Under the pieces are notes generated by a model. That model did no database searches and was not told the DNA's origin. It was given only the letters and a program-made list of their open reading frames with translations. Shown in pieces: positions 15,159 to 43,052 of a stretch of DNA of 43,206 nt (position 1 is its first letter; the number at the start of each line of letters is the position of its first letter). Position numbers and translations under genes: made by a program. Where the stretch lies: the UHGV virus genome UHGV-1355782. One strand, written 5' to 3'. Source of the stretch: a virus.

Positions 15159-15188
15159 TTTAAACCCCTTCATTGTTGGTGTAAGTGA

Positions 15189-15217
15189 ATAGTACCCTAT
15201 TATATTGGGGTGTGCAA
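15189..15217 (-). promoter_or_regulatory. class-1 promoter TTGCAC-N17-TACTAT with palindromic operator (15187-15202)
   Basis: near-identical to element at 6126-6154; directly upstream of antisense island. Confidence 0.5.
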
Positions 15218-27058: not shown

Positions 27059-27346
27059 CTAACTATAATAGTTCGCTATTAGGTCGTCAACCTGTTTAAA
27101 CGAACCAACGACAAAAACATTTGCTCCACGTTTACGCATCCGCTCGTGCTCTCGTAGCTGGTGTGGGTCTGGCTTCGTGTTTTCGTCTTTCTTAACCTCG
27201 ACGAACCAGATGATGCCGCCGGGGAGAATTACCAGCAGGTCAGGAGCGCCCGCTCTATTTTCGTACGACAATTTGCGTACGAGGCCGCCGATAGCCTCGA
27301 ATCGCTCTTTTGCGTATTTCTGGATGCGCCCCTCAGGCGTACTCAT
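27059..27346 (-). CDS. VRR-NUC domain nuclease
   Basis: PD-(D/E)XK-type motif GAPDLLVILPGGIIWFVEVKK; C-terminus ...IANYYS encoded by the promoter/operator repeat. Confidence 0.65.
   Translation of the reverse strand: MSTPEGRIQKYAKERFEAIGGLVRKLSYENRAGAPDLLVILPGGIIWFVEVKKDENTKPDPHQLREHERMRKRGANVFVVGSFKQVDDLIANYYS
27062..27090 (-). promoter_or_regulatory. class-2 promoter TTGACG-N17-TATAGT with palindromic operator (27066-27081)
   Basis: minus-strand -35 TTGACG, 17-bp spacer containing TAATAG-cgaa-CTATTA, -10 TATAGT; lies inside the 3' end of the VRR-NUC gene. Confidence 0.5.
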
Positions 27347-29753: not shown

Positions 29754-30219
29754 GGCAATAAAATTCCTTATGCAGTTTTTCTCTTAATTTCTTTACAGCG
29801 CTTTCTGCTTCTTCAAGAGTTCCGTAGCTACCAGCGTTATAACTTTTGTAGTTAAAATGTACACGCCCATAAAACCGGTTGCCGTTTTTAACTACTCCCT
29901 TAACTCCCGTTCTAGCTCCCTTATTTTTAGCGTTTCGCACATTATCCGCTGTGGTTGCTTTCCTTAGGTTAGAAATCCTATTGTCTAACCTGTCACGGTT
30001 TATATGGTCAAGAGGCCCCTCAGGCCATTCGCCGTACTCGAAAAACCAAGCAAGCCTATGGGCCATGTAGTATCTACCCATGTAGGGTATGCGCCAGTAT
30101 CCGCTACTATTCATACATCCCGCAATGTCTCCGGGTCTCCCTCGTCTGTACGTAGGTTGTATCCATGTGAATATTCCGGTTTCTCGGTTATAACTAAGAA
30201 AATCTTTTATATGTTCCAT
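29746..30219 (-). CDS. HNH homing endonuclease with AP2-like domain
   Basis: HNH motif DHINRDRLDNRISNLR and AP2-like GVKGVVKNGNRFYGRVHF; start taken as ATG 30219 because the annotated TTG start at 30243 lies inside a terminator hairpin. Confidence 0.65.
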   Translation of the reverse strand: MEHIKDFLSYNRETGIFTWIQPTYRRGRPGDIAGCMNSSGYWRIPYMGRYYMAHRLAWFFEYGEWPEGPLDHINRDRLDNRISNLRKATTADNVRNAKNKGARTGVKGVVKNGNRFYGRVHFNYKSYNAGSYGTLEEAESAVKKLREKLHKEFYCHD

Positions 30220-30230
30220 TCTGACTCCGG

Positions 30231-30254
30231 TAAAAAGGCCCAATGAAGGGCCTT
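30231..30254 (-). terminator. rho-independent terminator (minus strand) after SSB-like gene
   Basis: minus-strand hairpin AAGGCCC-ttcatt-GGGCCTT followed by TTTTT. Confidence 0.6.
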
Positions 30255-30273
30255 AGTTAAATTGGTTCAGATA

Positions 30274-30900
30274 TTAACGGCGACGACGTTCGCGGCGCGG
30301 TGCTTCATCTTCTTCGTCGTCTTCCAGGTCCTCGACACTCGCAGCTACTTTAGAACCACCAAACGCTTTACCTTCACCAACGTACTTAATTGCCAGCAGG
30401 TTAACACCGAGTACTTTGTATTTCTGGCTGAACCAGATTTCAACGCTTACGTTAGCGACGCAGCCGCTGTAAACCTGTTCGCCTTCAATCTGTTCGCCGT
30501 CTACATTGAAATCCTGCTCTACCTGAGTCTCACCTTTTTTAGATGTTACAATCAGCGGTTGTTTCTGTGCCTTCGCTTTGAAGTAGAAGCCTTCAGGGAA
30601 GTCTTCAAACGGATTGTCACGCTCGGCAATATCTTTAATCGCGCATTTATCCATGTGCTTACCTTCGCCGTAGTTGGACTTCATCCATTTCTCGGCGGCG
30701 GCTGCACCTAACGCTTCTTCAACTACAGCGTAAACAGTGTCGTAGAGTGCGTCGATTTGAGCATGGCCAGACTGCAGGATGATAGTCGCGCTGTACTGGC
30801 CTTTAGTGATTGAGCCATCATCGTTTTCACGGTCTTTTTCGCGTTCAAATACGTTAACCCATGCAGTGTTTACTTTACGCAGATTTAATTTCAGTCCCAC
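30274..30900 (-). CDS. putative ssDNA-binding/recombination-associated protein
   Basis: acidic C-terminal tail VEDLEDDEEDE; own class-2 promoter; GTG start with RBS GAGGG; function inferred weakly. Confidence 0.35.
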   Translation of the reverse strand: MGLKLNLRKVNTAWVNVFEREKDRENDDGSITKGQYSATIILQSGHAQIDALYDTVYAVVEEALGAAAAEKWMKSNYGEGKHMDKCAIKDIAERDNPFEDFPEGFYFKAKAQKQPLIVTSKKGETQVEQDFNVDGEQIEGEQVYSGCVANVSVEIWFSQKYKVLGVNLLAIKYVGEGKAFGGSKVAASVEDLEDDEEDEAPRRERRRR

Positions 30901-30960
30901 AGTTCAGCCCTCATTAAGTTTAGATTTTAAGTTTACTCCGGGAACTGCCCGGCCAGTGAT

Positions 30961-31461
30961 TTAACTATAATAGTTCGCTATTCGGTAGTCAACTTCTTTT
31001 AGCAAATTACTTTCAAAATTCTTTCTCGCCACGTTAGCCTGTTCAGGAGTTTCGAATAGTCCAAGGTAACGATATTGCCCGTTTACGGTAATTCCAGCCT
31101 GCCATTTACCATGGCTTTTGCGCCAAAACACGCCAGTGTACCCGCTTTTGTTATGACTTCTTCCGGTTTGAATGCCGCCTTTAGCCACATTATCGCTATG
31201 AGCGATTAACTGGAGATTCTCTATCCTGTCATCATTTCTTATCGCATTTATATGGTCCACCTCAAACCCTTCAGGTATAGGGCCGTTGTGGTACTCCCAT
31301 ATTAAACGGCTTCTTTGGTAGGACTTACGATTAATGTAGATCTGCACATACCCTGAATGGTGGAGGCTTCCTGCCTCCTGACCAGCTAACATTCTTTTTG
31401 TATTGTGGCGATAGATTAGTTTCCCGTTTTCATAAATGAAACGCTCCCGAACTAAACTCAT
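30961..31461 (-). CDS. HNH homing endonuclease with AP2-like domain
   Basis: HNH motif DHINAIRNDDRIENLQL, AP2-like GYTGVFWRKSHGKWQAGI; ATGA-coupled start at 31461; C-terminus ...IANYYS. Confidence 0.7.
   Translation of the reverse strand: MSLVRERFIYENGKLIYRHNTKRMLAGQEAGSLHHSGYVQIYINRKSYQRSRLIWEYHNGPIPEGFEVDHINAIRNDDRIENLQLIAHSDNVAKGGIQTGRSHNKSGYTGVFWRKSHGKWQAGITVNGQYRYLGLFETPEQANVARKNFESNLLKEVDYRIANYYS
30964..30992 (-). promoter_or_regulatory. class-2 promoter TTGACT-N17-TATAGT with palindromic operator (30968-30983)
   Basis: same architecture as 27062-27090; lies inside the 3' end of the HNH gene 30961-31461. Confidence 0.5.
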
Positions 31462-32723
31462 TCCAAATCCTCCTCTGTTACCTGATTCCACTCAGGCCGT
31501 TTGTCATCTGCCGTTGTGACGCACGGCGCTCCTGGCTTACGAGTAATGAAGTCTTTCAGTTCTTCTTCCGGCACAACTTTAACAGCTTCGGTTGGCGTCA
31601 TGAGCACTACCTTTTGCAGCATAGTACCGTACTTCTCGAATACCGCATCAGTGTCTTTCCATGCACGATTACCCGGGCGACCTTCAACCAGCTTGTACCC
31701 CGGAACTTTCTTACCCGAATGCAGCGCGGCAGCCATAGCTTTCTCAACCTTGTCGATGTGCTGGCGCAACAACGGCAACTTCTCATACTCAGCTACGAGT
31801 TGCTCAGGTGTCATTTCAAGAGCAAAGTCGTCCTCCAGTTCTTCCGCCAGTACCGCGTTAACGGTTTTTGTACGCGCTGCGCACTGTTCTGAGAACCGAC
31901 ACCACTGACAACCATCTACCGACGGCTTGAAGTCCGACGCTTTCAGGTTCTTCTTACCGCGGAAATACGCATCAAGCGCTAACAGTGCGCGCTTCTGGGC
32001 GAACTTAGCGAACAGTTCCAGACCTTCAACCGAGATGTCCCACTCCGACGCACCGCCCGCGTACGGCTGGAAGATGACCAGACGAACGGTTGTTATGTTA
32101 TAACGTCTCTTGAGTCGGCGATAAACACCGAGAGCGTAAAGCATAAGCTGCTTGTTTTCTTTCGCTTCGACACGATGCCGTCCGGTTTTCAGGTCGCCGA
32201 TAATTAACATGTGCTCATCAGTGTTGGCCAGTTCCTGCACGGCAACAAGGTCAGCGGTTCCGAAGGTTTGAATTTCTTCTTGCCTCCCACCGGGGCTATG
32301 GATGTATCCCGGATGCAATACCTCAGTAAGATTGACACGCATTTCCAGCTTGGCGTAAGTCGCTACATCGATAATCGGTTTACAGTAGTCGGTATACTTG
32401 CGCACCTGCTCAATCATGTCAGCCGTAATCAGTACCGCACCTTTCATCGGACTGATTAGTGCCTTAATCTGTCCTTTACCCTCATCCAGCACGTACGCAC
32501 CGACTTCACGCTCTAACGGCAGCGCAGTGCCTTTGATGTACTGGTTTAGATGTACCTCAGCTATTGTGTGACACGCTGTCCCCGTAACGGCGGATTTACC
32601 CGACGTGTTAGGAATATCTTTTTCACAAGCCAGCGATGCGGCGCAACTTAGCCACTTCTTAGCGCCTGACGGCGACAGTAAAGCGTGTACGTCGTTATTG
32701 CCGCCGCGTTCCTTTAAAATCAT
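31458..32723 (-). CDS. PD-(D/E)XK exonuclease, Cas4/RecB-like with cysteine cluster (putative)
   Basis: LSPSGAKKWLSC N-terminal motif; D...IIGDLKTG nuclease motif; C-terminal CQWCRFSEQC; start ATG 32723 (ATGA coupling). Confidence 0.55.
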   Translation of the reverse strand: MILKERGGNNDVHALLSPSGAKKWLSCAASLACEKDIPNTSGKSAVTGTACHTIAEVHLNQYIKGTALPLEREVGAYVLDEGKGQIKALISPMKGAVLITADMIEQVRKYTDYCKPIIDVATYAKLEMRVNLTEVLHPGYIHSPGGRQEEIQTFGTADLVAVQELANTDEHMLIIGDLKTGRHRVEAKENKQLMLYALGVYRRLKRRYNITTVRLVIFQPYAGGASEWDISVEGLELFAKFAQKRALLALDAYFRGKKNLKASDFKPSVDGCQWCRFSEQCAARTKTVNAVLAEELEDDFALEMTPEQLVAEYEKLPLLRQHIDKVEKAMAAALHSGKKVPGYKLVEGRPGNRAWKDTDAVFEKYGTMLQKVVLMTPTEAVKVVPEEELKDFITRKPGAPCVTTADDKRPEWNQVTEEDLE

Positions 32724-32992
32724 ACCCTGTTCTCCCACTGGTCAATTAAATGTTGTGTCTGGTGCTGGCGGTGCATAGCCCATCCATACATCGACTCGAA
32801 GACATAAAAGTCAGGTTTGGCGAAAGTCGTGCGCTTAATCTGCGACACGTGACGGCCTATATCTTTAGGCCGCGGTACTTTGCCTAAGTACGCCATCTCT
32901 TCCATCTGGTGTGCACCGGACGGCGCACGCAACAGCCATATCGCCTCGGTGTTATCCCGCCTGTCGATGGCGCGGTATAGTTGATAAATCAT
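32720..32992 (-). CDS. hypothetical protein (90 aa)
   Basis: start ATG 32992 preceded by GAGGGTCGGAAAT, the same RBS box as gene 33004-33240. Confidence 0.45.
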   Translation of the reverse strand: MIYQLYRAIDRRDNTEAIWLLRAPSGAHQMEEMAYLGKVPRPKDIGRHVSQIKRTTFAKPDFYVFESMYGWAMHRQHQTQHLIDQWENRV

Positions 32993-33003
32993 ATTTCCGA
33001 CCC

Positions 33004-33240
33004 TCATTCAAAACTATCAAAGTCAAGTTCGTCCAGCATAGCCTCCGCCTCATCCGCTGCGGAAATAAGCGCTTTAGCAAGTTCTCTCGCCATATCAGGA
33101 GTATATTCCATGAACGAAAGCCCGTTCATCTCATCCGCAGGGTCGAAATCTAGGGTTACTCTTTTCTGCTTTCCCTGTATCGTGTTGCGAACCTCAAGGC
33201 TAACTCTGGCTTCATCGTTGTTAATATCTTTAATAATCAT
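33004..33240 (-). CDS. hypothetical protein (78 aa)
   Basis: RBS GAGGGTCGGAATT before ATG 33240. Confidence 0.5.
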   Translation of the reverse strand: MIIKDINNDEARVSLEVRNTIQGKQKRVTLDFDPADEMNGLSFMEYTPDMARELAKALISAADEAEAMLDELDFDSFE

Positions 33241-33283
33241 AATTCCGACCCTCAGTTAAAGCGACCCGAAGGCCGCGAGATAG

Positions 33284-33784
33284 TTATTCTTCTTCGAAAT
33301 ACTTGTTCTTGATTGCTGTCAGACGCTTCAGGTACTCGGCCAGGTCTTCGTCTTTAATCGCGGCAATCTTCATCTTCTTGCCGGTGAACTCTTCCAGCAG
33401 TTCATCGGAATCATCGCACGCGGCATCGCTCGGGCCTTCGTTAATGGCATCATCGATAGCCTGAATCTGGTCACGAAGAGACTGGTAATCTACCTCTTCT
33501 TTCACTTCTTCCGGCTCTGGCGTTGGTTCCTCTACTTTAGCTTTACGCGGCTTGCGTTTAGGCTTCTCGTCTTCTGTCGGTTTGGTGTCAACGACGTCTT
33601 CGCCTTCAACCGGGATTTCTTTTGTTTCTTCTTCGGCGCACTCGGCTACCGCTTCTTTGGTATACACTACCGTCTCTACTTCCATCGGTGCGGAAGCCTG
33701 AACAACTTGTTTCGCACTGTTCGCAGCAATCAGTTCATGCGCAACTACGAAACGTTCCAGTAATTTTAAGAATTGTTCTAACAT
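33284..33784 (-). CDS. hypothetical acidic protein (166 aa)
   Basis: RBS AGGAG; Glu/Lys/Pro-rich low-complexity centre; N-terminus MLEQFLKL paralogous to next gene. Confidence 0.5.
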   Translation of the reverse strand: MLEQFLKLLERFVVAHELIAANSAKQVVQASAPMEVETVVYTKEAVAECAEEETKEIPVEGEDVVDTKPTEDEKPKRKPRKAKVEEPTPEPEEVKEEVDYQSLRDQIQAIDDAINEGPSDAACDDSDELLEEFTGKKMKIAAIKDEDLAEYLKRLTAIKNKYFEEE

Positions 33785-33799
33785 TATTTGTTCTCCTGT

Positions 33800-34003
33800 T
33801 TATTTAGTTTCAATAATCTGTGCGTTTACTTTAGAAAGAAATTCTGATGTTATCCCGTGCTCTGCTTCGAATTTATCTGCGGTGAAGTCGTATGCCTTAA
33901 GAACGCCATTAACCCAGTTGAAGGTCATTGAAAATGGGTTGCCACCAATGAACCATACTGCAACGAACTGTTTTTCAGGTAATTTCAAAAATTTCTCTAA
34001 CAT
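33800..34003 (-). CDS. hypothetical protein (67 aa)
   Basis: RBS GAGAGGAGAGAA; first gene of leftward operon downstream of switch promoter. Confidence 0.5.
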   Translation of the reverse strand: MLEKFLKLPEKQFVAVWFIGGNPFSMTFNWVNGVLKAYDFTADKFEAEHGITSEFLSKVNAQIIETK

Positions 34004-34034
34004 TTGTTTCTCTCCTCTCGTTTGGTATTGGTTA

Positions 34035-34064
34035 ACTATAATAGCGAACTATTCATGTTGTCAA
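34035..34064 (-). promoter_or_regulatory. class-2 promoter TTGACA-N18-TATAGT with palindromic operator (34039-34054), leftward early promoter
   Basis: minus-strand consensus -35 TTGACA; operator TAATAG-cgaa-CTATTC in spacer. Confidence 0.55.
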
Positions 34065-34068
34065 TGGG

Positions 34069-34097
34069 CTTTTCTAAAATAATTAATATGGTACTAT
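34069..34097 (+). promoter_or_regulatory. putative rightward promoter for Cro-like gene with operator-like site (34084-34099)
   Basis: -10 TACTAT 34092-34097 preceded by TAATAT-ggta-CTATTC; poor -35. Confidence 0.35.
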
Positions 34098-34128
34098 TCA
34101 CGTATCAACTGACTAAGGAGTAACTGAC

Positions 34129-34344
34129 ATGCAACCATCAGAACTAGGTATCCGTGTAGAACAACGCCGCAAAGAACTCGGCATCTCCCAGCGTCGTCTG
34201 GCTGTCCTGGCCGGGGTTTCCCAGGGCGCGATTAACCAGCTTGCGCTCGGGGTAACTCAGGACGTCCGCCCGGCAACGCTGTTTAAACTGGCGGAAGTGC
34301 TGCAAGTAGATGCTAAGTGGCTGGCGTTCGGTGAAGGGGCTTAA
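34129..34344 (+). CDS. Cro/CI-type (XRE family) HTH transcriptional regulator
   Basis: HTH motif LGISQRRLAVLAGVSQGAINQLALG; RBS AAGGAG; divergent from early operon; followed by terminator. Confidence 0.7.
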   Translation: MQPSELGIRVEQRRKELGISQRRLAVLAGVSQGAINQLALGVTQDVRPATLFKLAEVLQVDAKWLAFGEGA

Positions 34345-34359
34345 CGCCCCTTTCTTTTT
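34334..34359 (+). terminator. rho-independent terminator after Cro-like gene
   Basis: AGGGGC-ttaac-GCCCCT followed by TTCTTTTT. Confidence 0.6.
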
Positions 34360-34555
34360 ATTGCACCTTTATCGGGTATCTTTTGCGAAACTTACCTAAC
34401 CCGCAGTACACGCTGTAAGCCTCTGTGTAACTGAACACAACATGATACCCGCGCCCATAAGGAACTACGTTAAGAACTTCTACTACTTCGCCTCTGTGGT
34501 TGGTGTATTTATTACCTTTCAGTTCGTCGCTTACTTCTTTAAATTTACCGCTCAT
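34358..34555 (-). CDS. hypothetical protein (65 aa)
   Basis: strong RBS AGAGGAGGATTTGGA before ATG 34555, identical to the junction upstream of HNH gene at 31461. Confidence 0.5.
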   Translation of the reverse strand: MSGKFKEVSDELKGNKYTNHRGEVVEVLNVVPYGRGYHVVFSYTEAYSVYCGLGKFRKRYPIKVQ

Positions 34556-36819
34556 TCCAAATCCTCCTCTGTCACTGTCAACATTTCATTCGGTTCGTAT
34601 ATTGTCTTCGGAATCTTGTTATCAGTTATTCGGGTGTTCAGCCTGTAACGACCAGGGATTATCTGATTGTTTTCGTCAGTACCCGGAACAAGATACCCGG
34701 CCTCAACCATTTTCTTAATCTTCCCGCGTTCTATAGCTTCTTTGGAGTTAAACGCCTTCGCGTTGGGGTCAGACTGCGCGAGCTTATTCGCTGCAGCTAC
34801 CGTGATGCCTTCGTTGCCGCTGTAGGTTCCTTCTGCCAGCTCAAACGCTGCCAGTATCGTGGCCTCCGAACTGTTGACGGCGTTCTCTACGGTTTTACGT
34901 ACGTTTTCTTTACCTTCCTTTGTCAGCCCTTCTTCCCGCTCTTTCTCCTCGTCAGTCTTGAACGGCTCGAAGCCCCACGGCATCAGCACAAGCGCCTTGT
35001 GCGGCTCAGGCAGGTCGAGGTTTACGATTGTGCCGTATTCCTCTGTGCTACCGATGAACTCAACCGCACGGTACTCTTTCGGCGGCGGTGCTTCACGGAA
35101 CTGTACCGACTCCAGCACCATGCCAACCGTCTTCTGTTGAGGCCCGTGCTTAAATTTAGAGTGATATACGTTTATCTGGCGGTCGGTTGCGCGTTCAATT
35201 GTCAGTTCCACGTCGACACCAGCATACAGCGCCCCACTGCCACGGGCTTTCTTTCCGCCTTTCGGCGTATGATGGACAACGCCTACCGCGGCTTTAGTCG
35301 CGTCACGCACTTCTTTAAGGATGGCGATAACTTTACCCATGCCGATTGCCGTTGATGAACTGTTCTCGTCGAACTTATCAATCGTCAGGGCCAGCGTCTG
35401 GTTTAGTGTGTCGAACGCGACCATGCCAATAGGTTCATCTCCCGCGGTTTCGCGCATTAGCTTAATCAGGCTCTTCAGTTTGCCGACCTCACCCATATCG
35501 ATGACGTGTACATAATCTTTACCTTCCACGCCGTATTTAGCCGCTAGTGCGTCGATACGGGTGCGCGTAGCGGCACCACCCTCACCGTCGATATAGAAGT
35601 GGTGGCAACGCTGGGTATCAGCCCCTGCGAACCGGTATCCCGCCGCGCTAAGGTACATCATACCCAGCGTATAGAACGATTTGTACGTGCCTGATTCCCC
35701 GACAATATCCCATATACAATCCGACGGCATGTACCCTTCAACGACGAAATCAGCCTTTACCGGTTCCGGTAACTCGTCCTCCTCTGAGTCATCCTCGTCT
35801 TCCAGGTCGTCAAGGCTGCATGAAACAGATTCACGCGCGCCCCACCCTATAGCCTCAGCCACTTCACTGAACGGCAGCCCGGTCGCATCACACGCGTATT
35901 TCCACACCTCTTTCGGTGACATGCCTTCGGTTGCCGTAATGTCGGTGTCGTGAATCATGGTTACGTTCGGCGCTTCGTACCCTTCACGCGGGAAACACAG
36001 CAGGAAGTCATCCGGGCGCGGCGTAGGGTCGCTGTAGTTCTCTGCGTGTTCCGGTGTAGCTGGCATCTTAAGGCCGCGCGGCGTCATGACGCCGCCGTAC
36101 TCAAACGCCAGCGCTTCGAACGCGTCTGTAAACGCTGTGCGCAGTTCTTCCGGTATCTGGTAATCCGATGCGCTGCTAACGTCAACGGCGGTGGCGCCTT
36201 CCAGTAATTCGTCCGGGTCAATCAGGTCGTTGCGGCGCGACCAGATAACCTGAGAGCCAACCGGTGGTAGGTACATCGGCTGCGACAGAGTAAACCCGCT
36301 GCGGTCCGCACCCATGCCTTTGAAGAAGTGTTCCAGCAATCCGTGGCGAACACGGATGATATCACCACCCTCAACCGGGCGGGCCAGCGGCATAACGACG
36401 CGAAAGCGCGGCGACTCATCGGTATGTGATGCCGTGGTGTAGAGACACATCGCCCGGCGGCTGCGATTAACCTGGCGCACCGCTTCCTGGTACTCTTCCG
36501 GTGTTGCACTGTCGAAGTCCAGATACGCCAGCGACGATTTGCTCACAGACGCGTCACAGCGATAGAAGAAGCCTTTACGCGCTTGTTTAAAGCCACCGGT
36601 TTCCGGGTCTTTTACGGTGCTGTGTGTAGAATCGCACGCGGCCGTGATATAACCGGCCGCAGTCTTGGGGTTAATCCCGTCACGAACGGCATCGAGCGGC
36701 TTGATTAGCTCTTTCAGGTCGTCCAGTGTTGCCGTGTGTGTGGTTCTGACGTTTATATCCTTTTTCTCTGCTCGCGCGTTGCGGCGTGACCACGAGTAGG
36801 ATAAAATTACATCGGACAT
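34552..36819 (-). CDS. primase-helicase (N-terminal primase-like region, C-terminal P-loop ATPase)
   Basis: 755 aa; Walker A GESGTYKS; RBS GAAGGAA; C-terminus ...VTEEDLE shared with exonuclease. Confidence 0.6.
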   Translation of the reverse strand: MSDVILSYSWSRRNARAEKKDINVRTTHTATLDDLKELIKPLDAVRDGINPKTAAGYITAACDSTHSTVKDPETGGFKQARKGFFYRCDASVSKSSLAYLDFDSATPEEYQEAVRQVNRSRRAMCLYTTASHTDESPRFRVVMPLARPVEGGDIIRVRHGLLEHFFKGMGADRSGFTLSQPMYLPPVGSQVIWSRRNDLIDPDELLEGATAVDVSSASDYQIPEELRTAFTDAFEALAFEYGGVMTPRGLKMPATPEHAENYSDPTPRPDDFLLCFPREGYEAPNVTMIHDTDITATEGMSPKEVWKYACDATGLPFSEVAEAIGWGARESVSCSLDDLEDEDDSEEDELPEPVKADFVVEGYMPSDCIWDIVGESGTYKSFYTLGMMYLSAAGYRFAGADTQRCHHFYIDGEGGAATRTRIDALAAKYGVEGKDYVHVIDMGEVGKLKSLIKLMRETAGDEPIGMVAFDTLNQTLALTIDKFDENSSSTAIGMGKVIAILKEVRDATKAAVGVVHHTPKGGKKARGSGALYAGVDVELTIERATDRQINVYHSKFKHGPQQKTVGMVLESVQFREAPPPKEYRAVEFIGSTEEYGTIVNLDLPEPHKALVLMPWGFEPFKTDEEKEREEGLTKEGKENVRKTVENAVNSSEATILAAFELAEGTYSGNEGITVAAANKLAQSDPNAKAFNSKEAIERGKIKKMVEAGYLVPGTDENNQIIPGRYRLNTRITDNKIPKTIYEPNEMLTVTEEDLE

Positions 36820-36877
36820 GTTGTATATTCCTTCAGCAAGTAATTTGGCCTCGGCGCTCTAACGTCGGGGCTTTCTT

Positions 36878-37168
36878 TTATCTTTTAGCCAGACATTCCA
36901 TCAAATGTGCGTACTTACGATAATAATCTGCGACAATCTCATCACCGAAATACTGATAAACGTAGGATAGGTGGTCGGAGACATCGATGGAAGCCGACAT
37001 TGTGCTGAGTCTTCGGAGACTAATCAACTGCAATTCTTCTGTAACGCAAAACGGCAAATATGAGTCCAGTTTACAGGAAACGTTGAAACACAACGCGTAT
37101 TCACCTTGCACTAAATAAACCATATAAGCATTGTCGTTCTCTTTATCGTGGAAAATTACACCTTTCAT
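36878..37168 (-). CDS. hypothetical protein (96 aa)
   Basis: RBS AAGGAG; ATGA coupling to upstream HTH gene. Confidence 0.5.
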   Translation of the reverse strand: MKGVIFHDKENDNAYMVYLVQGEYALCFNVSCKLDSYLPFCVTEELQLISLRRLSTMSASIDVSDHLSYVYQYFGDEIVADYYRKYAHLMECLAKR

Positions 37169-37333
37169 TTCACGTTCTCCTTAATCCATGCTTCAACTTT
37201 ATTACGGTCAAATGTTCCTGGCATCCGGCGGCCCATTACTTTAACGCTGCAATCAGGAAACTTTCCACTCTTAATCCAGTTATTGATTGTCTGGCGGGTG
37301 ACGCCGATTAATTCTGCAACTTCATTGATAGTC
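37165..37333 (-). CDS. AlpA/excisionase-type HTH DNA-binding protein (putative regulator)
   Basis: MTINEVAELIGVTRQTINNWIKSGKFP helix-turn-helix; start ATG 37333 with RBS AGGAG (ORF track extends to 37425). Confidence 0.6.
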
Positions 37334-37440
37334 ATTTCGCGCTCTCCTGTGTAAGATGTATCGAAGTATAAGGCGGTAACTTTGTAAAAGCAACCAAAAC
37401 ACCACACAAAGTTACTAAGATGCAAAAGATGCTACTAGTA

Positions 37441-37469
37441 TTGACTTTTACTTAAAAATATGCTAAGCT
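37441..37469 (+). promoter_or_regulatory. strong sigma70-type promoter (TTGACT-N17-TGnTAAGCT) driving structured leader RNA copy B
   Basis: -35 TTGACT 37441-37446; extended -10 TG-c-TAAGCT 37461-37469; matches promoter at 6221. Confidence 0.55.
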
Positions 37470-37472
37470 TCA

Positions 37473-37584
37473 CTGAGCTTGTGAGATATCGCAAGCGACC
37501 GCGGAGCGGCAGGGAACGCAACGCGTGCCATTAGGCACTTGAGTGTAGTTCCGCTGACGCTTTCGGAAGGGTCAAAGTCTATTG
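37473..37584 (+). ncRNA. conserved promoter-proximal structured RNA element, copy B
   Basis: non-coding; aligns with 6254-6363 with compensatory hairpin change; followed by GC hairpin GGGGTGGGC-taac-GCCCACCC at 37670-37690. Confidence 0.35.
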
Positions 37585-37749
37585 TTAATCCCGCCTAAAT
37601 ATCCAAGTCACTGATAATTAAAAGTTTCTATAGTTGCCGTGAGCAAGGTAGAGAGTACTTCACTCCGCTGGGGTGGGCTAACGCCCACCCACTGCGTTGC
37701 GTACTCTTTTAAGAAACGAAAGAATCACAACGGCAACGTAACTATTCTC

Positions 37750-37779
37750 TTGCGCACCCCAACCATAATAGGATACTAT
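37750..37779 (+). promoter_or_regulatory. class-1 promoter TTGCGC-N18-TACTAT with palindromic operator (37766-37781)
   Basis: upstream of first rightward small gene. Confidence 0.45.
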
Positions 37780-37813
37780 TCACTTATTGGAACGAGACAG
37801 AGGAGTGAGGGTT

Positions 37814-37996
37814 ATGTTTAAGAAGGGTCAGTTGGTTAAAATTAAAGAGACCAAAGAACTCTCGGTTATATTCGCGTCCCACAAAGAAAATAGATATTAT
37901 TTTGCTGCATCTTTAACAGGATCGTATCTCACCGTTTTATACGCACAGGATATGGAACTCATCGGCAACAATTTTAAATTCAAAGGGGTGAAGTGA
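37814..37996 (+). CDS. hypothetical protein (60 aa)
   Basis: ATG 37814 with RBS AGGAG. Confidence 0.45.
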   Translation: MFKKGQLVKIKETKELSVIFASHKENRYYFAASLTGSYLTVLYAQDMELIGNNFKFKGVK

Positions 37997-38202
37997 TGGA
38001 AGAATTATTTGAAGATCTGAAACATCATAGACTGGAGAAAGTGCATTTCATAACTAACAATTACAAGGTTACTTTATTAGGGGGTTCAACTATTTCTTCC
38101 TGGGCATGTGAAGATTTGCTGAAAGTTTTACGAGCACTACGCACGGCATCTAATCATGATGCTCGTGCCGACGACTCTGATGGAGGTTGCCGTGTTAAGT
38201 AA
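37996..38202 (+). CDS. hypothetical protein (68 aa)
   Basis: start overlaps previous stop; RBS GGGGTGA. Confidence 0.45.
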   Translation: MEELFEDLKHHRLEKVHFITNNYKVTLLGGSTISSWACEDLLKVLRALRTASNHDARADDSDGGCRVK

Positions 38203-38443
38203 ATACCGCATAGTTAGCGAGGAGTGGGTTACCGCCTTCGGTGAGAAACGCATTACGCCCGCGGTACAGGTGCGGGTCGGGTTGTTCTGGTGGGTTACTC
38301 TGACCCGTTGTGAAAGCGTAAAGCAGGCGCGCTACTACATTGAGCATGGTTGCACCAGGCGCGAGAAATCTAAAGTTATCGGAGTTATTAGTTATGAGAG
38401 AAGCATTCGAACGGTGGGCCGTCGTCGAGGGGCTGCCGGTTAA
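38192..38443 (+). CDS. hypothetical protein
   Basis: GTG 38192 preceded by RBS GGAGG; overlaps neighbours in other frames. Confidence 0.35.
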   Translation: MLSKYRIVSEEWVTAFGEKRITPAVQVRVGLFWWVTLTRCESVKQARYYIEHGCTRREKSKVIGVISYERSIRTVGRRRGAAG

Positions 38444-38537
38444 CAAGGGTTCAAAGAAAGAGTACCTGAACGTTAAGACGCGTCTCGCGTGGCGGGCGTG
38501 GAAGGCTGGTGTGTTGTCTGTTGCGAATCCGAGGTGA
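38394..38537 (+). CDS. hypothetical protein (47 aa)
   Basis: ATG 38394 with RBS GGAG; alternative to the 3' part of the overlapping ORF. Confidence 0.3.
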   Translation: MREAFERWAVVEGLPVNKGSKKEYLNVKTRLAWRAWKAGVLSVANPR

Positions 38538-38540
38538 GAT

Positions 38541-38753
38541 ATGGGCGAGTGGATTAAGTGTAGCGAGCGGATGCCGCCTAAAATTACGGGCGTTCTTGTA
38601 GCAACGGAGTTCGGACATAAAGGTGATTGGCGTATGAAGTGGGCTACCTATATTCCGGGGCACCCTGATGCCGATGATGGGTGGTTAATTCCCGGAGCTT
38701 CGTGGAAGCCATCACACTGGATGCCGTTACCAGAGCCGCCATCGCTGGTGTAA
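38541..38753 (+). CDS. DUF551-like phage protein
   Basis: Trp-rich pattern W..CSERMP...W..W...WMPLP typical of small enterophage proteins; RBS GAGGTGA. Confidence 0.5.
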   Translation: MGEWIKCSERMPPKITGVLVATEFGHKGDWRMKWATYIPGHPDADDGWLIPGASWKPSHWMPLPEPPSLV

Positions 38754-38787
38754 CAGGTCAATAGTTTACTATTTGGCTTTGTGACTT

Positions 38788-38816
38788 ACGCTGCTACACA
38801 GCAGCGTATCATTTTT
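38788..38816 (+). terminator. rho-independent terminator
   Basis: ACGCTGCT-acac-AGCAGCGT followed by T-rich ATCATTTTTCTCATTTTT. Confidence 0.6.
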
Positions 38817-38878
38817 CTCATTTTTGTTCTATTTCACCAAACGCAACAATCGAAGCGACTATTGCAGGAGATGCAACA

Positions 38879-39048
38879 ATGAAACTGAATGACATCGTAA
38901 CCTGGACCGGTAGAAACGGAGAAAAGCGATTCGGGCTTATTGTTGAGTCAGACGGCAACAAGTACCGTGTTATGCGATGGCGTCAGTGGGCACGCCGCCC
39001 GAGGTACTACTGGATTCGCAGTGAACGATTATCTTTAAAACACCAATA
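38879..39048 (+). CDS. hypothetical protein (56 aa)
   Basis: RBS GCAGGAG before ATG 38879. Confidence 0.45.
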
Positions 39049-39056
39049 AAATTTAC

Positions 39057-39085
39057 TTGCATGCTAAGATAGAATAGGCTACTAT
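39057..39085 (+). promoter_or_regulatory. class-1 promoter TTGCAT-N17-TACTAT with palindromic operator (39072-39087)
   Basis: fourth copy of the TTGCAY/TACTAT element. Confidence 0.45.
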
Positions 39086-39116
39086 TCATTTACACAAACG
39101 AGAGGAGAGACGGAAG

Positions 39117-39254
39117 ATGGGCGGGTACGGTAGCTGGACTTTAGGCGAACTGGTAGATGCTTACGAAATAATGGGCAGCACTTCGGTGTGCAACGGAGAC
39201 ACTAAATCGCTTCTAGTCGGGGCGGATGAGAAAATGGGTGAAGCTGATGAGTAA
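39117..39254 (+). CDS. hypothetical protein (45 aa)
   Basis: RBS AGGAGAGA before ATG 39117. Confidence 0.35.
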   Translation: MGGYGSWTLGELVDAYEIMGSTSVCNGDTKSLLVGADEKMGEADE

Positions 39255-39579
39255 CAAAAACGAAGTATTCGAGTACCTGATCGACCAGCTACGGCAGCAG
39301 GTAAATAACAGCCGGAGCGAAGACCTGGCGCATGAGGTGCAGTCACTTAAGAATCAGTTACGTGATGCGTCGGCGCAGATTAAGGAGCTGCAACTGGCGC
39401 TGGCCCAAGCTACTGGTGACGTGGAGGCGTACAAACTTATCCGCAAGGGTGCGCTTGGTCACGAGCAATCCGGTTGCCGTAAATGTGGTGTGGCTAAACC
39501 TGAAGAATGCGAGCACGAATGGCAATTTTACGGAGTAGGATTTCCGTGTATGTGCGTTAAATGCGGGTTAAAGAAATGA
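39247..39579 (+). CDS. coiled-coil protein with C-terminal Cys-rich zinc-ribbon-like motif
   Basis: ATG 39247 overlapping previous stop; CRKCG...CEHEW...CMCVKCG. Confidence 0.45.
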   Translation: MSNKNEVFEYLIDQLRQQVNNSRSEDLAHEVQSLKNQLRDASAQIKELQLALAQATGDVEAYKLIRKGALGHEQSGCRKCGVAKPEECEHEWQFYGVGFPCMCVKCGLKK

Positions 39580-39779
39580 CCAGCATCTTATTTATCTGGG
39601 TATTGTCCGCAGGCCAGATGCAACTAGCGGCAGCAGAAACGTTTTACTCAATGGAGGCGTGCCAGTCAGCGGCACGCGCCGCGGAGAACGCGCACTTTCT
39701 GTTTCAGGGTGACAAGCCAAACGATTCAGAGGTACGTGCTATCTGCTCACCTAAGCGACTTGGTAAACAGGAGAAGTGA
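39576..39779 (+). CDS. small secreted/membrane-anchored protein (putative signal peptide)
   Basis: ATGA coupling at 39576-39579; N-terminal hydrophobic segment MTSILFIWVLSAGQMQLAAA. Confidence 0.4.
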   Translation: MTSILFIWVLSAGQMQLAAAETFYSMEACQSAARAAENAHFLFQGDKPNDSEVRAICSPKRLGKQEK

Positions 39780-39781
39780 TT

Positions 39782-40030
39782 ATGATTAAATTATACGCAG
39801 AGCGCGATTTAGAAATGCTCGACATGACTAACAATTACTATTCAAGACATGTGATGGCAATGACCGGAGAAGGGTTAAACAGCAAATCGGCTATCGCCGC
39901 GGAGTTGGCGTATCGCGACTGGATTATTGACGAACAGCAAAAAGAGTTACAGAAATACAAGGACCAGTTCCCGGATTATGTAGAGTGCGCGAACTGTGGG
40001 TCGGTCACACATGTGGAAGGGGTGGAGTGA
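39782..40030 (+). CDS. hypothetical protein (82 aa)
   Basis: ATG 39782 with RBS AGGAGA. Confidence 0.45.
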   Translation: MIKLYAERDLEMLDMTNNYYSRHVMAMTGEGLNSKSAIAAELAYRDWIIDEQQKELQKYKDQFPDYVECANCGSVTHVEGVE

Positions 40031-40335
40031 TGATTGACGCATATATCTATTGGAGCGGGATAGCTTTTAATTTTACCCTTGTCGCTGCGGTTCTTTGGGT
40101 GCTTTGGTGTTGGGTACTGTTCCCCGCCGTAGAAGCGGCCAGCATGGCGCGGTACTACCGAAGAATCGGAAAAGCGCACAGGATTAAAGTACACAACTGG
40201 TTAAGGCTATTCCTCGCTAACTACGAATTGTTTGGGCGCACGTTTACGGCGCAGCGGTGTGCTTACGGCTACTGGGAAGGAGTAGGGCTATGGGAAGTAT
40301 TTCCTGCGGAGGATGAAAATGAGCCTGGCAACTGA
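40030..40335 (+). CDS. hypothetical membrane protein
   Basis: ATG 40030 overlapping previous stop; TM segment IAFNFTLVAAVLWVLWCWVLF. Confidence 0.45.
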   Translation: MIDAYIYWSGIAFNFTLVAAVLWVLWCWVLFPAVEAASMARYYRRIGKAHRIKVHNWLRLFLANYELFGRTFTAQRCAYGYWEGVGLWEVFPAEDENEPGN

Positions 40336-40612
40336 CATCCTGAAGCGAAGCGGCCTTGTGCCGCTGTCGCCGAGAGCTAAAACACGAATATACAAGCGCC
40401 GCCGTAATGCGCTGTACCCCGAGATTCAGGCCAGACGCAAAGCTGTCCGTGCCTGCGGATTCCAGAACGGGAAGGCCGTGAATCTCGGTGAGTTTAAAAC
40501 AAAGGAACGCGCAGCAATCGCTAATCGGCTATTTAAATACTGGAAATCGCTGGGATATGAAGATATTCCGACGAAACCGCAGAGACGACAATACATCTGG
40601 AGACATAAATGA
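40319..40612 (+). CDS. hypothetical basic protein
   Basis: ATG 40319 6 nt after RBS GGAGG; Arg/Lys-rich. Confidence 0.45.
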   Translation: MSLATDILKRSGLVPLSPRAKTRIYKRRRNALYPEIQARRKAVRACGFQNGKAVNLGEFKTKERAAIANRLFKYWKSLGYEDIPTKPQRRQYIWRHK

Positions 40613-41049
40613 CTACTATCGCGTTTGACGGAAAGACGATGGCATGTGACACCCGTGTTGTGAGTGGAAGTAACTATTACAACACAGACACAAAGATATA
40701 TGAGAACGAATTTGTTGTTATCGGGGTGGCTGGTGATGCTGGGGTTGGAATCCTTTTAGTGAAGGACGATAGTATTTTAGTGCCTAAGCATTATGATTTT
40801 GATTTCTCTGCTTTGGTGTGGGTTAAAGACATCGAAACGTTGTGTAAGGTGGAGTTCTACAAATCATGGGATTGTGAGCTTAGTTCGGTTATTCCGATCG
40901 CAGACGGCTTTGCCGCCGTCGGCTCCGGTGCGCCTTATGCGCTAGCGGCTATGGAATGCGGGTATTCTGCACATGGTGGCGTAGCTGTGGCGTCGAAGTT
41001 TAACACTGACACAGGTGGCAAGATTATTACCAAACAACTATTAGGATAA
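40609..41049 (+). CDS. HslV/proteasome beta-subunit-like Ntn-hydrolase peptidase
   Basis: N-terminus MTTIAFDG with Thr after Met as in HslV MTTIVSV; GSGAPYALAAMECG resembles HslV GSGGPYAQAAARAL; recalled family resemblance, not a search. Confidence 0.55.
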   Translation: MTTIAFDGKTMACDTRVVSGSNYYNTDTKIYENEFVVIGVAGDAGVGILLVKDDSILVPKHYDFDFSALVWVKDIETLCKVEFYKSWDCELSSVIPIADGFAAVGSGAPYALAAMECGYSAHGGVAVASKFNTDTGGKIITKQLLG

Positions 41050-41063
41050 ATCCTAACCGTGCT

Positions 41064-41103
41064 ATCCTCCAGTTACTGCATACTTAATACGCACCTGGAG
41101 GAT
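41064..41103 (+). promoter_or_regulatory. inverted repeat sequestering the holin ribosome-binding site
   Basis: ATCCTCCAG (41064-41072) perfectly complementary to CTGGAGGAT (41095-41103), which contains the holin SD GGAGGA. Confidence 0.4.
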
Positions 41104-41108
41104 TCATC

Positions 41109-41417
41109 TTGGATAAATTTACTGAAACAGTGACGGGGTGGCTTCTGGCTGCCGCACTAGCAGGAGGGGTAATCGGGCTACGACAACATAAGTCCGTTAT
41201 TTCTGGCCCTATCGACGGCTTCTGCTTTATCGCAACTGGCTTCACCTGCGCCGTATTTGGCGCACCCCTCGCGGCTCAATGGTTCGGCATTACCGGGGAA
41301 CGCGAGATAGCTGGCCTCGGATTTATCATCGCTGTCCTCTGGATGCCCATCTATTCCCGCCTTTCTGGCATCGTCGCCGGAGAATACATCGCACGTCGAG
41401 GAGGCCCGGATGAATGA
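41109..41417 (+). CDS. holin (putative, three TM segments)
   Basis: TTG start 7 nt after RBS GGAGGA; three hydrophobic segments; charged C-terminus; precedes endolysin. Confidence 0.55.
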   Translation: MDKFTETVTGWLLAAALAGGVIGLRQHKSVISGPIDGFCFIATGFTCAVFGAPLAAQWFGITGEREIAGLGFIIAVLWMPIYSRLSGIVAGEYIARRGGPDE

Positions 41418-41682
41418 GTTATTCTGGTTCGGCGGTATGCTGGCAATCGGAGGCACATCGCTGTTTAATGTTTATCACCCCAGCGTGGACGACGGGCTGT
41501 TCGGTCGGGTGCTCTATATCCTGACAGCTATCGTCTGCGCCGCCGGATGTATCCACCTGTTACAGGGCAGCATGTCACCAACGCTGCCTGAGACATTAAT
41601 CACATTAGTTGCGCTGCGCCAGATTCGCCAGGCGTGGCTGTCATACGGAGGACATAAGCGTGTCTCGAAACATTTCAGATAA
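41410..41682 (+). CDS. second holin-like membrane protein (possible antiholin)
   Basis: RBS GAGGAGG; two TM segments; overlaps holin stop and endolysin start. Confidence 0.4.
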   Translation: MNELFWFGGMLAIGGTSLFNVYHPSVDDGLFGRVLYILTAIVCAAGCIHLLQGSMSPTLPETLITLVALRQIRQAWLSYGGHKRVSKHFR

Positions 41683-42166
41683 TGGATTGCAGTTCAAGAA
41701 AGCGTGGGAGAAGTTTCGCGGAACTGCATACAAAGCCACAAAGAACGAGAAATACTGGACTATAGGCTGGGGCCATACCGGGCCGGATGTGTATGAAGGG
41801 CAGAAGATTACTGAGGGTCAGGGGCTTCTGCTACTGAACCGCGATATGCAGTGGGCTGTGAAAGCAGTCGACGAGGTAGCGCACCCCTCACTGACCCAGG
41901 CCCAGTTTGATGCTGTTGTTGACCTGGTGTTTAACGCAGGAACTGGCGTTATTGCTGCTAATACCGGAACCGGTAAGGCACTACGTAGCGGGGACATCCC
42001 CACCTTACGGCATAAGTTGAGCCAGTTCATCAACCAACGCAACCCGAAAACCGGTAAACTCGAGCCTGTGCTTGGCCTACGCCGTCGCGTAGCCGGACGT
42101 CTGGCACTGTTCGACGGTAAACCATGGCGGGAGGCAGAAGCTATCGGGCGCGCGGTGAAAGGTTGA
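41660..42166 (+). CDS. endolysin, T4-lysozyme-like (GH24) muramidase
   Basis: catalytic-region motif EKFRGTAYKATKNEKYWTIGWGHT; GTG 41660 preceded by RBS GGAGGA (ORF track starts 41609). Confidence 0.8.
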   Translation: MSRNISDNGLQFKKAWEKFRGTAYKATKNEKYWTIGWGHTGPDVYEGQKITEGQGLLLLNRDMQWAVKAVDEVAHPSLTQAQFDAVVDLVFNAGTGVIAANTGTGKALRSGDIPTLRHKLSQFINQRNPKTGKLEPVLGLRRRVAGRLALFDGKPWREAEAIGRAVKG

Positions 42167-42233
42167 CACCTGAGAGTAATCAGACGATACTTAAAATCAC
42201 CTCCTGCTCCATCCCTCTGCTCTCCAGTTTTAT

Positions 42234-42265
42234 CCCGGCCCTGACCCAGCCGGGTATTTTTTTTT
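42234..42265 (+). terminator. rho-independent terminator after lysis genes
   Basis: CCCGGC-loop-GCCGGG followed by a 9-nt T-run. Confidence 0.7.
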
Positions 42266-42287
42266 ATCTATTTTCTGCAATGACTAG

Positions 42288-42316
42288 TTGACTATTACCA
42301 TCGACCCTACTATATT
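42288..42316 (+). promoter_or_regulatory. sigma70-type promoter TTGACT-N17-TATATT
   Basis: good -35/-10 with 17-bp spacer, upstream of the small-ORF run. Confidence 0.45.
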
Positions 42317-42384
42317 TACTCCATCAACAACGAGAACGGAGTAGAGAAGATGAAGCGTTACCAGAGAAAACGGTAGAGCAGTTT

Positions 42385-42546
42385 ATGGAGTACCTTAACG
42401 AGATGGGTCTTTCTGTTTACGGGCCGAGTATGACACCAGAAGGAGAAGAAACAGGCGCACTAATGGATTATGACGTGGATACGGTAGTGGCTCGCTATAA
42501 ATATATAACTAAAGGCACTTTACGTAAGTTTGGGGGTTACGAATGA
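42385..42546 (+). CDS. hypothetical protein (53 aa)
   Basis: ATG 42385; weak RBS; stop overlaps next start. Confidence 0.3.
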   Translation: MEYLNEMGLSVYGPSMTPEGEETGALMDYDVDTVVARYKYITKGTLRKFGGYE

Positions 42547-42692
42547 AAATCACAGATATAGAAGCATTCAAAGACGCACAACTGATGGCACGCATCGCCG
42601 TTAGTAACCTGAGCAACAGCATCCCGGCGGCCGCGTTCTGGTTCGCTGCGATGCAGACACTGAAAGCAGCTTATGCAGGAGAGAAGAAATGA
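42543..42692 (+). CDS. hypothetical protein (49 aa)
   Basis: ATGA coupling; RBS GGGGG. Confidence 0.35.
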   Translation: MKITDIEAFKDAQLMARIAVSNLSNSIPAAAFWFAAMQTLKAAYAGEKK

Positions 42693-43041: not shown

Positions 43042-43052
43042 GGCGTAAGCAT

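Follow-up and report, generated by a model that had tools for sequence, protein, structure and literature searches.

The virus genome UHGV-1355782 (43,206 bases; this whole stretch of DNA, as analysed, is called the window) carries at 34035–34344 two divergent promoters and a gene for a small Cro-like protein of the XRE family of helix-turn-helix (HTH) proteins. Each of the two promoters overlaps a copy of a 14-bp dyad that recurs at about ten sites in this Kagunavirus genome, all but one of them (38760) within a promoter, over the −10 element, the spacer, or the −35 element. We favor, with moderate confidence, the interpretation that the 71-residue protein is a dimeric global repressor of the phage 434 Cro type that acts on this dyad without a CI partner, and that it would shut the early and replication promoters before the late promoters and its own. 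As read from the genome, a Cro/XRE repressor with operators is a known kind of system, and the new element would be the genome-wide, graded set of operators placed in promoters in the absence of CI.

A 14-bp Dyad Recurs in Promoters across the Genome

The core dyad, AATAG-N4-CTATT, is built of two 5-bp half-sites separated by 4 bp (5-4-5, 14 bp). Eight perfect copies are found in the window (at 6125, 15188, 27067, 30969, 34040, 37767, 38760, and 39073), compared with 0.05 expected and a maximum of 1 in 300 Markov simulations; a 17-nt pattern likewise gives 8 matches versus 0.29 expected. Copies with one mismatch lie at 34085, 42283, 6216, and 21377, the last of which is inside a tail gene and is probably due to chance. 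When inverted repeats were counted without bias (all 5- and 6-mers, spacers of 0–8), the dyad ranked first both in the window (8 copies) and in Salmonella phage SETP3 (5 copies), and the only other families in that count were terminator hairpins. All perfect copies are intergenic or lie at most 25 nt from a gene's end, and all but one are in a promoter directed at a gene.

The dyad is part of most host-type promoters that can be recognized in the genome. These promoters, which were read from the sequence, fall into three classes by the placement of the dyad. Class I promoters (TTGCAC-N17/18-TACTAT) have the dyad over the −10 element, at about −19 to −6, and comprise early and accessory promoters together with the putative repressor's own: those at 6125 (−), 15188 (−), 37767 (+), and 39073 (+) and the HTH gene promoter at 34085, which has no −35 element. 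In class II (TTGAC[A/G/T]-N17/18-TATAGT), which consists of the three leftward recombination/replication promoters at 27067 (−), 30969 (−), and 34040 (the leftward promoter of the divergent region, P_L), the dyad lies at about −25 to −12, in the spacer and abutting the −10 element. Class III promoters (TTGACT-N17-TATATT or TAAGCT), at 42283 and 6216, have an imperfect dyad over the −35 element and precede packaging and capsid genes. The dyads outside the divergent region are as follows; they are given without a strand, and the sign is that of the promoter.

6125–6138, operator in a class I promoter, TTGCAC-N17-TACTAT (−), that drives a 94-aa accessory gene (5814–6098)
6216–6229, imperfect dyad AATAGttgaCTTTT over the −35 element of the class III promoter TTGACT-N17-TAAGCT (+), before a structured leader RNA and the capsid genes
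15188–15201, operator in a class I promoter (−) that drives an island of Imm-like, SbcD-like exonuclease, and HNH genes within the structural block
27067–27080, operator in a class II promoter, TTGACG-N17-TATAGT (−), that drives methylase and SNF2 helicase genes
30969–30982, operator in a class II promoter, TTGACT-N17-TATAGT (30992–30964, −), that drives the genes for a DUF2815 single-stranded DNA-binding protein and DNA polymerase
37767–37780, operator in a class I promoter, TTGCGC-N18-TACTAT (+), that drives a rightward block of small early genes
38760–38773, orphan perfect dyad with no recognizable promoter, between the stop codon of a 70-aa open reading frame (ORF) and a terminator at 38787–38808
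39073–39086, operator in a class I promoter, TTGCAT-N17-TACTAT (+), that drives a second rightward block
42283–42296, imperfect dyad ACTAGttgaCTATT over the −35 element of the class III promoter TTGACT-N17-TATATT (42288–42316, +)

The operator at 15188 is conserved in K1G, the type phage of the genus, and in SETP3, in which BPROM also predicts a promoter at this position. The promoter at 42288–42316 comes after a terminator and before the terminase and structural (packaging) genes. The orphan dyad at 38760 is present in some relatives only, and its candidate roles are those of a roadblock, a looping partner, or a relic.

Between classes I and II the dyad is displaced by 6 bp relative to the −10 element, and in class III it lies over the −35 element instead. 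Since its sequence is kept while its register changes, the dyad is a separate element and not a piece of the promoter consensus. In all of these positions a bound protein would block RNA polymerase, which points to repression. A leftward promoter predicted for the operon of an excisionase-like HTH_17 protein, p96, and the helicase-primase (TTGCTT-N17-TATACT, 37364–37392, −; a sequence reading only) has no dyad near it, and this operon may therefore escape the proposed repressor.

The Divergent Region and Its Two Putative Operators

The following elements make up the divergent region.

33800–34003 (−), first gene of the P_L operon, 67 aa, phrog_6314
34035–34064 (−), P_L, TTGACA (34064–34059)-N18-TATAGT (34040–34035), matching 11/12 consensus positions
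34040–34053, O_L, predicted operator, a perfect dyad AATAGcgaaCTATT in the P_L spacer at about −25 to −12
34085–34098, O_R, an imperfect dyad AATATggtaCTATT (AATAT, one mismatch) over the −10 element of the HTH gene's promoter, at about −19 to −6
34089–34097 (+), P_R, putative promoter of the HTH gene, an extended −10 element TGgTACTAT with no −35 element
34129–34344 (+), Cro-like XRE-family HTH gene, 71 aa, a single-gene transcription unit, Pfam HTH_3 (PF01381)

The initial annotation of this region described a leftward promoter, TTGACA-N18-TATAGT, and a rightward promoter for the HTH gene, each overlapped by a copy of the palindrome. The leftward promoter is present where it was placed; in a consensus scan it is the best promoter-like site within 30000–43206, and it is the promoter of the 67-aa gene and of the recombination/replication cluster. 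The rightward promoter is upheld in part, as the extended −10 element can be seen by eye, but it lacks a −35 element and the consensus scan does not list it; at the same position the homologue in Jerseyvirus has TTGCAC-N17-TACTAT. The two motif copies (TAATAGCGAACTATTCA at 34039–34055 and TAATATGGTACTATTCA at 34084–34100) do overlap the two promoters, in positions that would repress them. The T of AATAT in O_R is at the same time the T of the extended −10 TG, so that a single base is under two constraints.

The lambdoid architecture that had been proposed for the region does not hold: each promoter has one operator, the distance between O_L and O_R is not kept (44–45 bp in Kagunavirus versus 56 bp in SETP3), and the HTH gene is a one-gene unit lying antisense in a leftward cluster. 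Because this spacing differs between genera, cooperative pairing of O_L and O_R is unlikely; activation of P_R by a protein bound at O_L (centered at about −57.5) is a low-probability speculation. As for the proposed Cro-type switch, a Cro-like gene without CI is present and its autoregulation is plausible, but the switch is not local. Its two operators belong to the genome-wide set of about ten sites, and the regulatory unit is thus a genome-wide regulon.

The XRE Protein Resembles 434 Cro

The description of the gene as Cro-like and of the XRE family is borne out by profile, sequence, and structure comparisons. The protein scores 48.1 bits with the Pfam HTH_3 profile (PF01381; cut-off 23, E = 1.2e-12), and its PHROG matches are transcriptional repressor and regulator families. 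The closest sequence among all PDB chains is phage 434 Cro (71 aa), which aligns end to end (E = 4.9e-7), followed by the DNA-binding domains of 434 repressor and P22 C2. An AlphaFold (AF2) model (predicted local distance difference test score, pLDDT, of 79) has helices at residues 5–17, 21–28, 32–39, 48–57, and 62–66, the five-helix XRE fold, and superposes on 434 Cro with 40% identity and a template modelling (TM) score of 0.73–0.79. The top Foldseek matches of the model are the SinR N-terminal domain, 434 Cro, and 434 repressor (probability 1.00, TM 0.72–0.79), and it also superposes on HipB and on controller (C) proteins of restriction-modification systems. Like a Cro of the 434 type, the 71-residue protein is a small single domain with no C-terminal oligomerization or peptidase domain. 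On the strength of its size, its modelled fold, and its closest relative, "Cro-like" is a fair description.

The HTH gene is preceded by a strong AAGGAG ribosome-binding site and is closed by its own terminator.

34333–34353 (+), intrinsic terminator of the HTH gene with the stop codon in its loop; in SETP3 its counterpart carries the annotation "rho-independent"

This terminator lacks a U-run on the minus strand, so that leftward transcription of the helicase-primase operon probably continues through the HTH gene in antisense. The gene forms a monocistronic unit in both Kagunavirus and Jerseyvirus, where it is flanked by two leftward gene blocks and is antisense to them. A toxin-antitoxin interpretation was ruled out, as there is no co-directional partner gene. 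Within the genus the gene is 93–100% identical, with promoter, Shine-Dalgarno site, and terminator intact, and by these comparisons it is under strong purifying selection. A broader homologue search returned only contigs of the Guernseyvirinae type, with 77–99% identity, and no close relative in a temperate context; the HTH protein of Klebsiella phage klb_E is 45% identical. Homologues are carried by about 570 phage records.

In GenBank the gene appears as "transcriptional repressor (DicA)", "XRE family", or "hypothetical". In the K1G RefSeq record (NC_027993.1) the Cro-like gene, at 33428–33640, is unannotated though 98.6% identical to that of the window; this record has no coding sequence for HTH_17 either.

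The Dyads Are Conserved across Two Genera

The loci that were compared comprise 51 from IMG/VR and four from other assemblies, together with the genomes of K1G, SETP3, and Cornellvirus. Dyads occupy the same relative positions in 34 Kagunavirus and 12 Jerseyvirus loci. In these loci, in K1G, and in four loci whose HTH protein is 77–79% identical, the half-sites are essentially invariant and the central 4 bp are free. The center of O_L, for example, is found as CGAA, CTAA, TGAA, CAAA, CGAG, CTAG, or CCAA with the half-sites unchanged. An alignment of 38 unique switch-region sequences is invariant at the −10 and −35 elements and at the four half-sites, and variable in the operator centers and the flanks. 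The operators at 27067, 30969, 37767, and 39073 recur in related loci and in K1G.

The imperfect sites are kept imperfect. The G-to-T change of O_R (AATAT) is present in all 38 Kagunavirus loci examined and in K1G, and the class III dyads ACTAGttgaCTATT and AATAGttgaCTTTT are identical in K1G, the former also in genomes with an HTH protein of 77–79% identity. Judged from these alignments, the dyad sites are under purifying selection across genera.

Cornellvirus keeps the XRE gene (40% identity), and the HTH_17 gene is absent from it. It has no exact dyad; a related motif, ATTAG-N4-GTAWT, which is not a clean palindrome, occupies the same promoter positions. The gene order around the XRE gene also differs: in Cornellvirus vB_CECAV_044 (10587–13631) the helicase-primase block is directly downstream of the XRE gene and co-directional with it, whereas in Kagunavirus and Jerseyvirus (34129–37425 in the window) the block is inverted and the XRE gene converges with it. 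In the Cornellvirus annotation the XRE ORF is made too long, at 149 aa.

A further homologue is encoded at 9878–10310 of a GC-rich IMG/VR contig (3300034072_001152, 56.5 kb). It is longer than the protein of the window and 48% identical over residues 19–70; its gene diverges from another HTH gene and is surrounded by four dyads of the type TGTAG-N4-CTACA, in two pairs. The layout resembles that of a classical immunity region, and the dyads have the 5-4-5 geometry seen in the window.

The Window Is a Complete Kagunavirus Genome

An 8-kb query around the switch region matches many Kagunavirus (Guernseyvirinae) records with 88–92% identity over 74–84% of its length, among them the Escherichia phages phiEc3/4, K1G, and fFiEco02/03. 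This nucleotide similarity, together with a gene order as in K1G and SETP3, places the virus in the genus Kagunavirus. The final base of the window is directly followed by its first base in a related IMG/VR contig (junction 8924/8925); since the two ends join without a gap, the 43,206 bases represent a complete, circularly permuted genome.

The initial annotation had reported no cI, integrase, or attachment site, and had named an integrase/CI module just outside the window as a finding that would overturn it. The absence holds for the complete genome. No integrase is present in the window or in annotated relatives (K1G and SETP3 among them), and a hidden Markov model of the XRE family detected no second XRE/CI ORF among the six-frame ORFs. 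A lysogeny module just beyond the window was ruled out, as none can exist beyond a genome that closes on itself in related contigs. No phage-encoded RNA polymerase is found in the genome or in annotated relatives, and the window contains no tRNA and no match to an Rfam family. PHROG scans of the submitted unassigned ORFs returned only the excisionase-like HTH_17 protein, a methylase, HNH endonucleases, and an endolysin.

The features of a temperate phage (integrase or plasmid-partition functions, prophage copies) are thus missing from the genome, and no prophage copy was matched in 5,426 complete E. coli genomes. In Jerseyvirus, regarded as strictly virulent, excisionase-like, Ant, and Imm genes have been described as temperate relics (PMC9409062). 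The earlier designation as a lytic phage is supported to this extent, the family being treated as virulent, but strict status is unsettled in view of a pseudolysogeny claim for the Jerseyvirus SGP-C (PMC8790156) and of a 44-kb "plasmid" record. The latter (CP088689.1, pC16EC0033-2 of E. coli C16EC0033, a human blood isolate) is a complete, circular Kagunavirus genome of 44,086 bp, listed in PLSDB as non-mobilisable. It could reflect carriage in a carrier state or contamination, and is an anecdote for occasional carriage, nothing more.

A Proposed CI-less Repressor and the Alternatives to It

From the length of the sites, their overlap with the promoters, and the purifying selection, we predict that the XRE protein binds as a dimer to the operators over P_R and P_L and represses both promoters, as a Cro of the 434 type does. 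After infection, host RNA polymerase would fire all dyad-bearing promoters. As repressor accumulates, it would fill the perfect operators first and turn off the early and replication promoters, whereas the conserved imperfect operators, those of its own promoter and of the late, class III promoters, would be filled last. The supply of repressor would thereby go on and then limit itself, and transcription of the structural genes would outlast early transcription. We infer each of these steps, namely that the XRE protein binds the dyad, that binding represses, and that the operators fill in this order with a role in timing.

Several observations favor the XRE protein as the binder. The genome encodes no other protein of the XRE type, and two dyads flank the XRE gene's own promoter. 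Operators of phage 434 are 14 bp long, and the 5-4-5 dyad has the same total length. Cornellvirus keeps the XRE gene and a related promoter motif without HTH_17, and the 48%-identical XRE protein of the GC-rich contig is encoded amid dyads of the same geometry.

Other observations weigh against a Cro-type repressor of this kind. The perfect dyad at 38760 has no promoter. The match of class I promoters to the sigma-70 consensus is poor (about 7/12), and they might need an activator, a role that the binder itself could play. Kagunavirus and Jerseyvirus share the half-site though their recognition helices differ (SQGAINQ versus SQSLITH), and since the Cornellvirus motif is not a clean palindrome, the argument from co-variation of helix and operator is weak. 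Finally, the only time-course RNA sequencing (RNA-seq) of a Kagunavirus, K1B4, puts Imm, the methylases, and the polymerase, all served by perfect-operator promoters, in a "late" class (PMC12645636), a placement at odds with simple early shut-off. However, samples were taken to 120 min with a latent period of 30 min (PMC12645636), so that infection cycles are mixed and the data are too coarse for the model. The same study classes an HTH gene as early and a "specific DNA binding" gene beside an AAA (helicase-primase-type) gene as middle (PMC12645636); we take the latter to be the XRE gene.

The same repressor and operators could serve a different purpose, mainly to silence the genome in a carrier or episomal state (pseudolysogeny) without CI or integrase and to confer superinfection immunity, rather than to time a lytic program. 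The repressor's own promoter, with the weakest operator, would then stay on while the others are shut; this reading overlaps with the one that we prefer and differs from it only in purpose. Operators do cover most promoters, including late ones, as those of a prophage repressor would, and the genome carries excisionase-like and Imm-like genes. SGP-C, which is 94% identical to SETP3 and encodes a Cro-like ORF49, was reported to form turbid bull's-eye plaques and immune, phage-releasing "lysogens", and an episome was proposed for it (PMC8790156); the circular "plasmid" of the blood isolate points the same way. The evidence on SGP-C is weak, however, consisting of PCR and patch tests only, and clear lytic growth is described in many papers (PMC9787291, PMC9825357, PMC9409062). 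Partition, plasmid-replication, and integration genes are missing, as are copies in the E. coli genomes surveyed, and there is no evident positive feedback that would stabilize a repressed state. Nor would the genome be fully silent, as dyads are lacking at the predicted leftward promoter of the helicase-primase operon and at a second copy of an RNA promoter at 37448. Silencing as the main purpose is unlikely. A wider proposal, that a single Cro-type protein with graded operators in nearly every promoter constitutes the whole transcriptional program of the subfamily and orders its early, replication, and late expression, without sigma factor, RNA polymerase, or CI, and could also hold a silent, non-integrated carrier state, is doubtful; if it were true, a carrier state at high occupancy would explain both the turbid plaques and the "plasmid" copies.

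The remaining alternatives separate the dyad from the XRE protein. The dyad may be a real operator read by another factor, either a host protein or the sole other DNA-binding candidate of the phage, while the XRE protein regulates only itself or something else.

37165–37335 (−), HTH_17/excisionase-like gene, 56 aa from the ATG at 37335

HTH_17 is 79% identical in Jerseyvirus, which shares the dyad, and no other annotated gene is classed as early in the K1B4 RNA-seq data (PMC12645636). The XRE recognition helices of the two genera differ. Cornellvirus, however, has no HTH_17 and still has a promoter-embedded motif and the XRE gene, and the dyads cluster at the XRE promoter, with none of up to two mismatches in 37100–37700, the region of the HTH_17 promoter. 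An excisionase-type winged helix of 56 residues would also be an atypical reader of a 5-4-5 dyad, and we know of no E. coli factor with this site; a different binder is quite improbable. Still less probable is the absence of any regulator, with the dyad being a phage-specific promoter consensus copied around the genome and the HTH gene a relic of a temperate ancestor. The right half-site is indeed part of the −10 element in class I, and published analyses with PHIRE have taken the motif for seven "phage RNA-polymerase promoters" with the consensus tgAATAGTa-ccTATTat-T (PMC9825357) or for a "regulatory element", TAATAGTACCCTATTATGTT (PMC8790156). However, the phage lacks an RNA polymerase gene, and a promoter consensus leaves the dyad symmetry unexplained, as well as the change of register between classes and the copy that has no promoter. 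Sigma-70 reads nothing in the promoter spacer, and yet the left half-site, which sits there, is invariant. A relic would also be hard to reconcile with the strong purifying selection on the HTH gene and its intact expression signals.

Comparison with Known Systems

The closest parallel to the proposed repressor is 434 Cro, which has the same length of 71 aa and the five-helix XRE fold; among solved structures it is nearest in sequence and ranks near the top in fold. P22 Cro/C2 and lambda Cro are further parallels. As in 434, the site is a 14-bp dyad and the Cro-like gene diverges from a leftward promoter whose operon has recombination genes; an operator at the gene's own promoter allows autoregulation, as with 434 Cro. 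In Cornellvirus the XRE gene heads the rightward replication (helicase-primase) operon, as cro does in lambda. Unlike these phages, however, the window lacks both a CI partner and a P_RM, and in place of tripartite O_L/O_R arrays it has one operator per promoter; a bistable switch, in which CI shares the operators of Cro, is thus not found. The operator half-site of 434 is ACAA-N6, whereas here it is AATAG-N4 and the operators are spread over about ten sites in 43 kb. The Kagunavirus/Jerseyvirus gene also differs from that of 434 Cro in being monocistronic and antisense to its neighbors.

Repressor sites dispersed over a phage genome are known from P1, whose C1 protein has many operators, and from the "stoperators" of mycobacteriophage L5 gp71, and these systems share with the present one a small repressor with scattered sites at many transcription units. 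P1 and L5 are temperate, their repressors maintain lysogeny, and their sites are asymmetric, those of L5 acting within transcription units. The sites described here are symmetric and nearly all in promoters, and integration and plasmid-maintenance genes are missing. Streptococcus thermophilus phage Sfi19, compared with Sfi21, is a virulent derivative of a temperate phage that keeps a cro-like gene as a leftover of a deleted lysogeny module. The present phage resembles Sfi19 in being lytic and yet keeping a Cro-type gene and lambdoid accessory genes (NinX/NinH/NinZ-like, DUF2737, DUF551, and excisionase-like), but it differs in that the operator has spread to promoters genome-wide and is conserved across at least two genera. 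The C proteins of restriction-modification systems (C.AhdI, C.BclI) are likewise small, stand-alone XRE proteins of similar structure that bind dyads at their own promoters and exert concentration-dependent, delayed control. They act at one promoter with paired sites, activating and then repressing, whereas here many promoters carry sites and none is at an activating position.

Phages of the genera Kagunavirus and Jerseyvirus are often isolated for use in therapy and biocontrol and also serve as small engineering chassis, as in the case of phage CM001, cited in the BASEL paper (10.1101/2024.09.12.612763). Their gene regulation is essentially unstudied. A literature search found no paper that links the dyad motif to a repressor protein. 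Linking the annotated "repressor" to the "phage promoter" motif yields a map of a regulon with about ten operators, three promoter classes, and conserved weak sites. If the proposal is correct, these phages would run a compact lytic program timed by one autoregulated repressor and operator affinity alone, and their promoters could be taken as a set of orthogonal repressible promoters that is ready for use. In a phage that lacks an integrase, a global repressor could also support carrier states, which bears on calling these phages strictly lytic.

Other Features of the Genome

A promoter (TTGACTTTT-N-TAAGCT) followed by a conserved RNA of ~130 nt occurs twice on the plus strand, at 6221–6374 and 37448–37595. 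An RNAalifold consensus from 11 versions of this RNA has 24 pairs, 7 of which show compensatory double changes (one of them as CG, UA, and AU). With a covariance model, the capsid-side copy was recovered from K1G at 125 bits and, weakly, from SETP3 (E = 2e-4), and no Rfam family was matched; the copy at 37 kb is present in only about half of the Kagunavirus loci. The RNA before the capsid genes may be a leader, an RNA of the antitermination type, or a small RNA.

Two HNH endonuclease genes, at 13319–13792 (−) and 30961–31491 (−), are paralogous and share a 74-nt stretch of 73% identity. The second contains in its 3′ end the class II promoter and operator at 30969 and is missing from several relatives, as expected for mobile homing endonucleases.

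The PD-(D/E)XK exonuclease (426 aa) and the helicase-primase (755 aa) share the acidic C-terminal tail ...VTEEDLE; the 25-nt repeat that encodes it, at 31458–31481 and 34552–34575 (−), has 96% identity between the two copies; the helicase-primase of Cornellvirus ends in ...SEEDDLEN. By analogy, these tails recall the acidic C-terminal tails that dock replication proteins of phage T7 to its polymerase.

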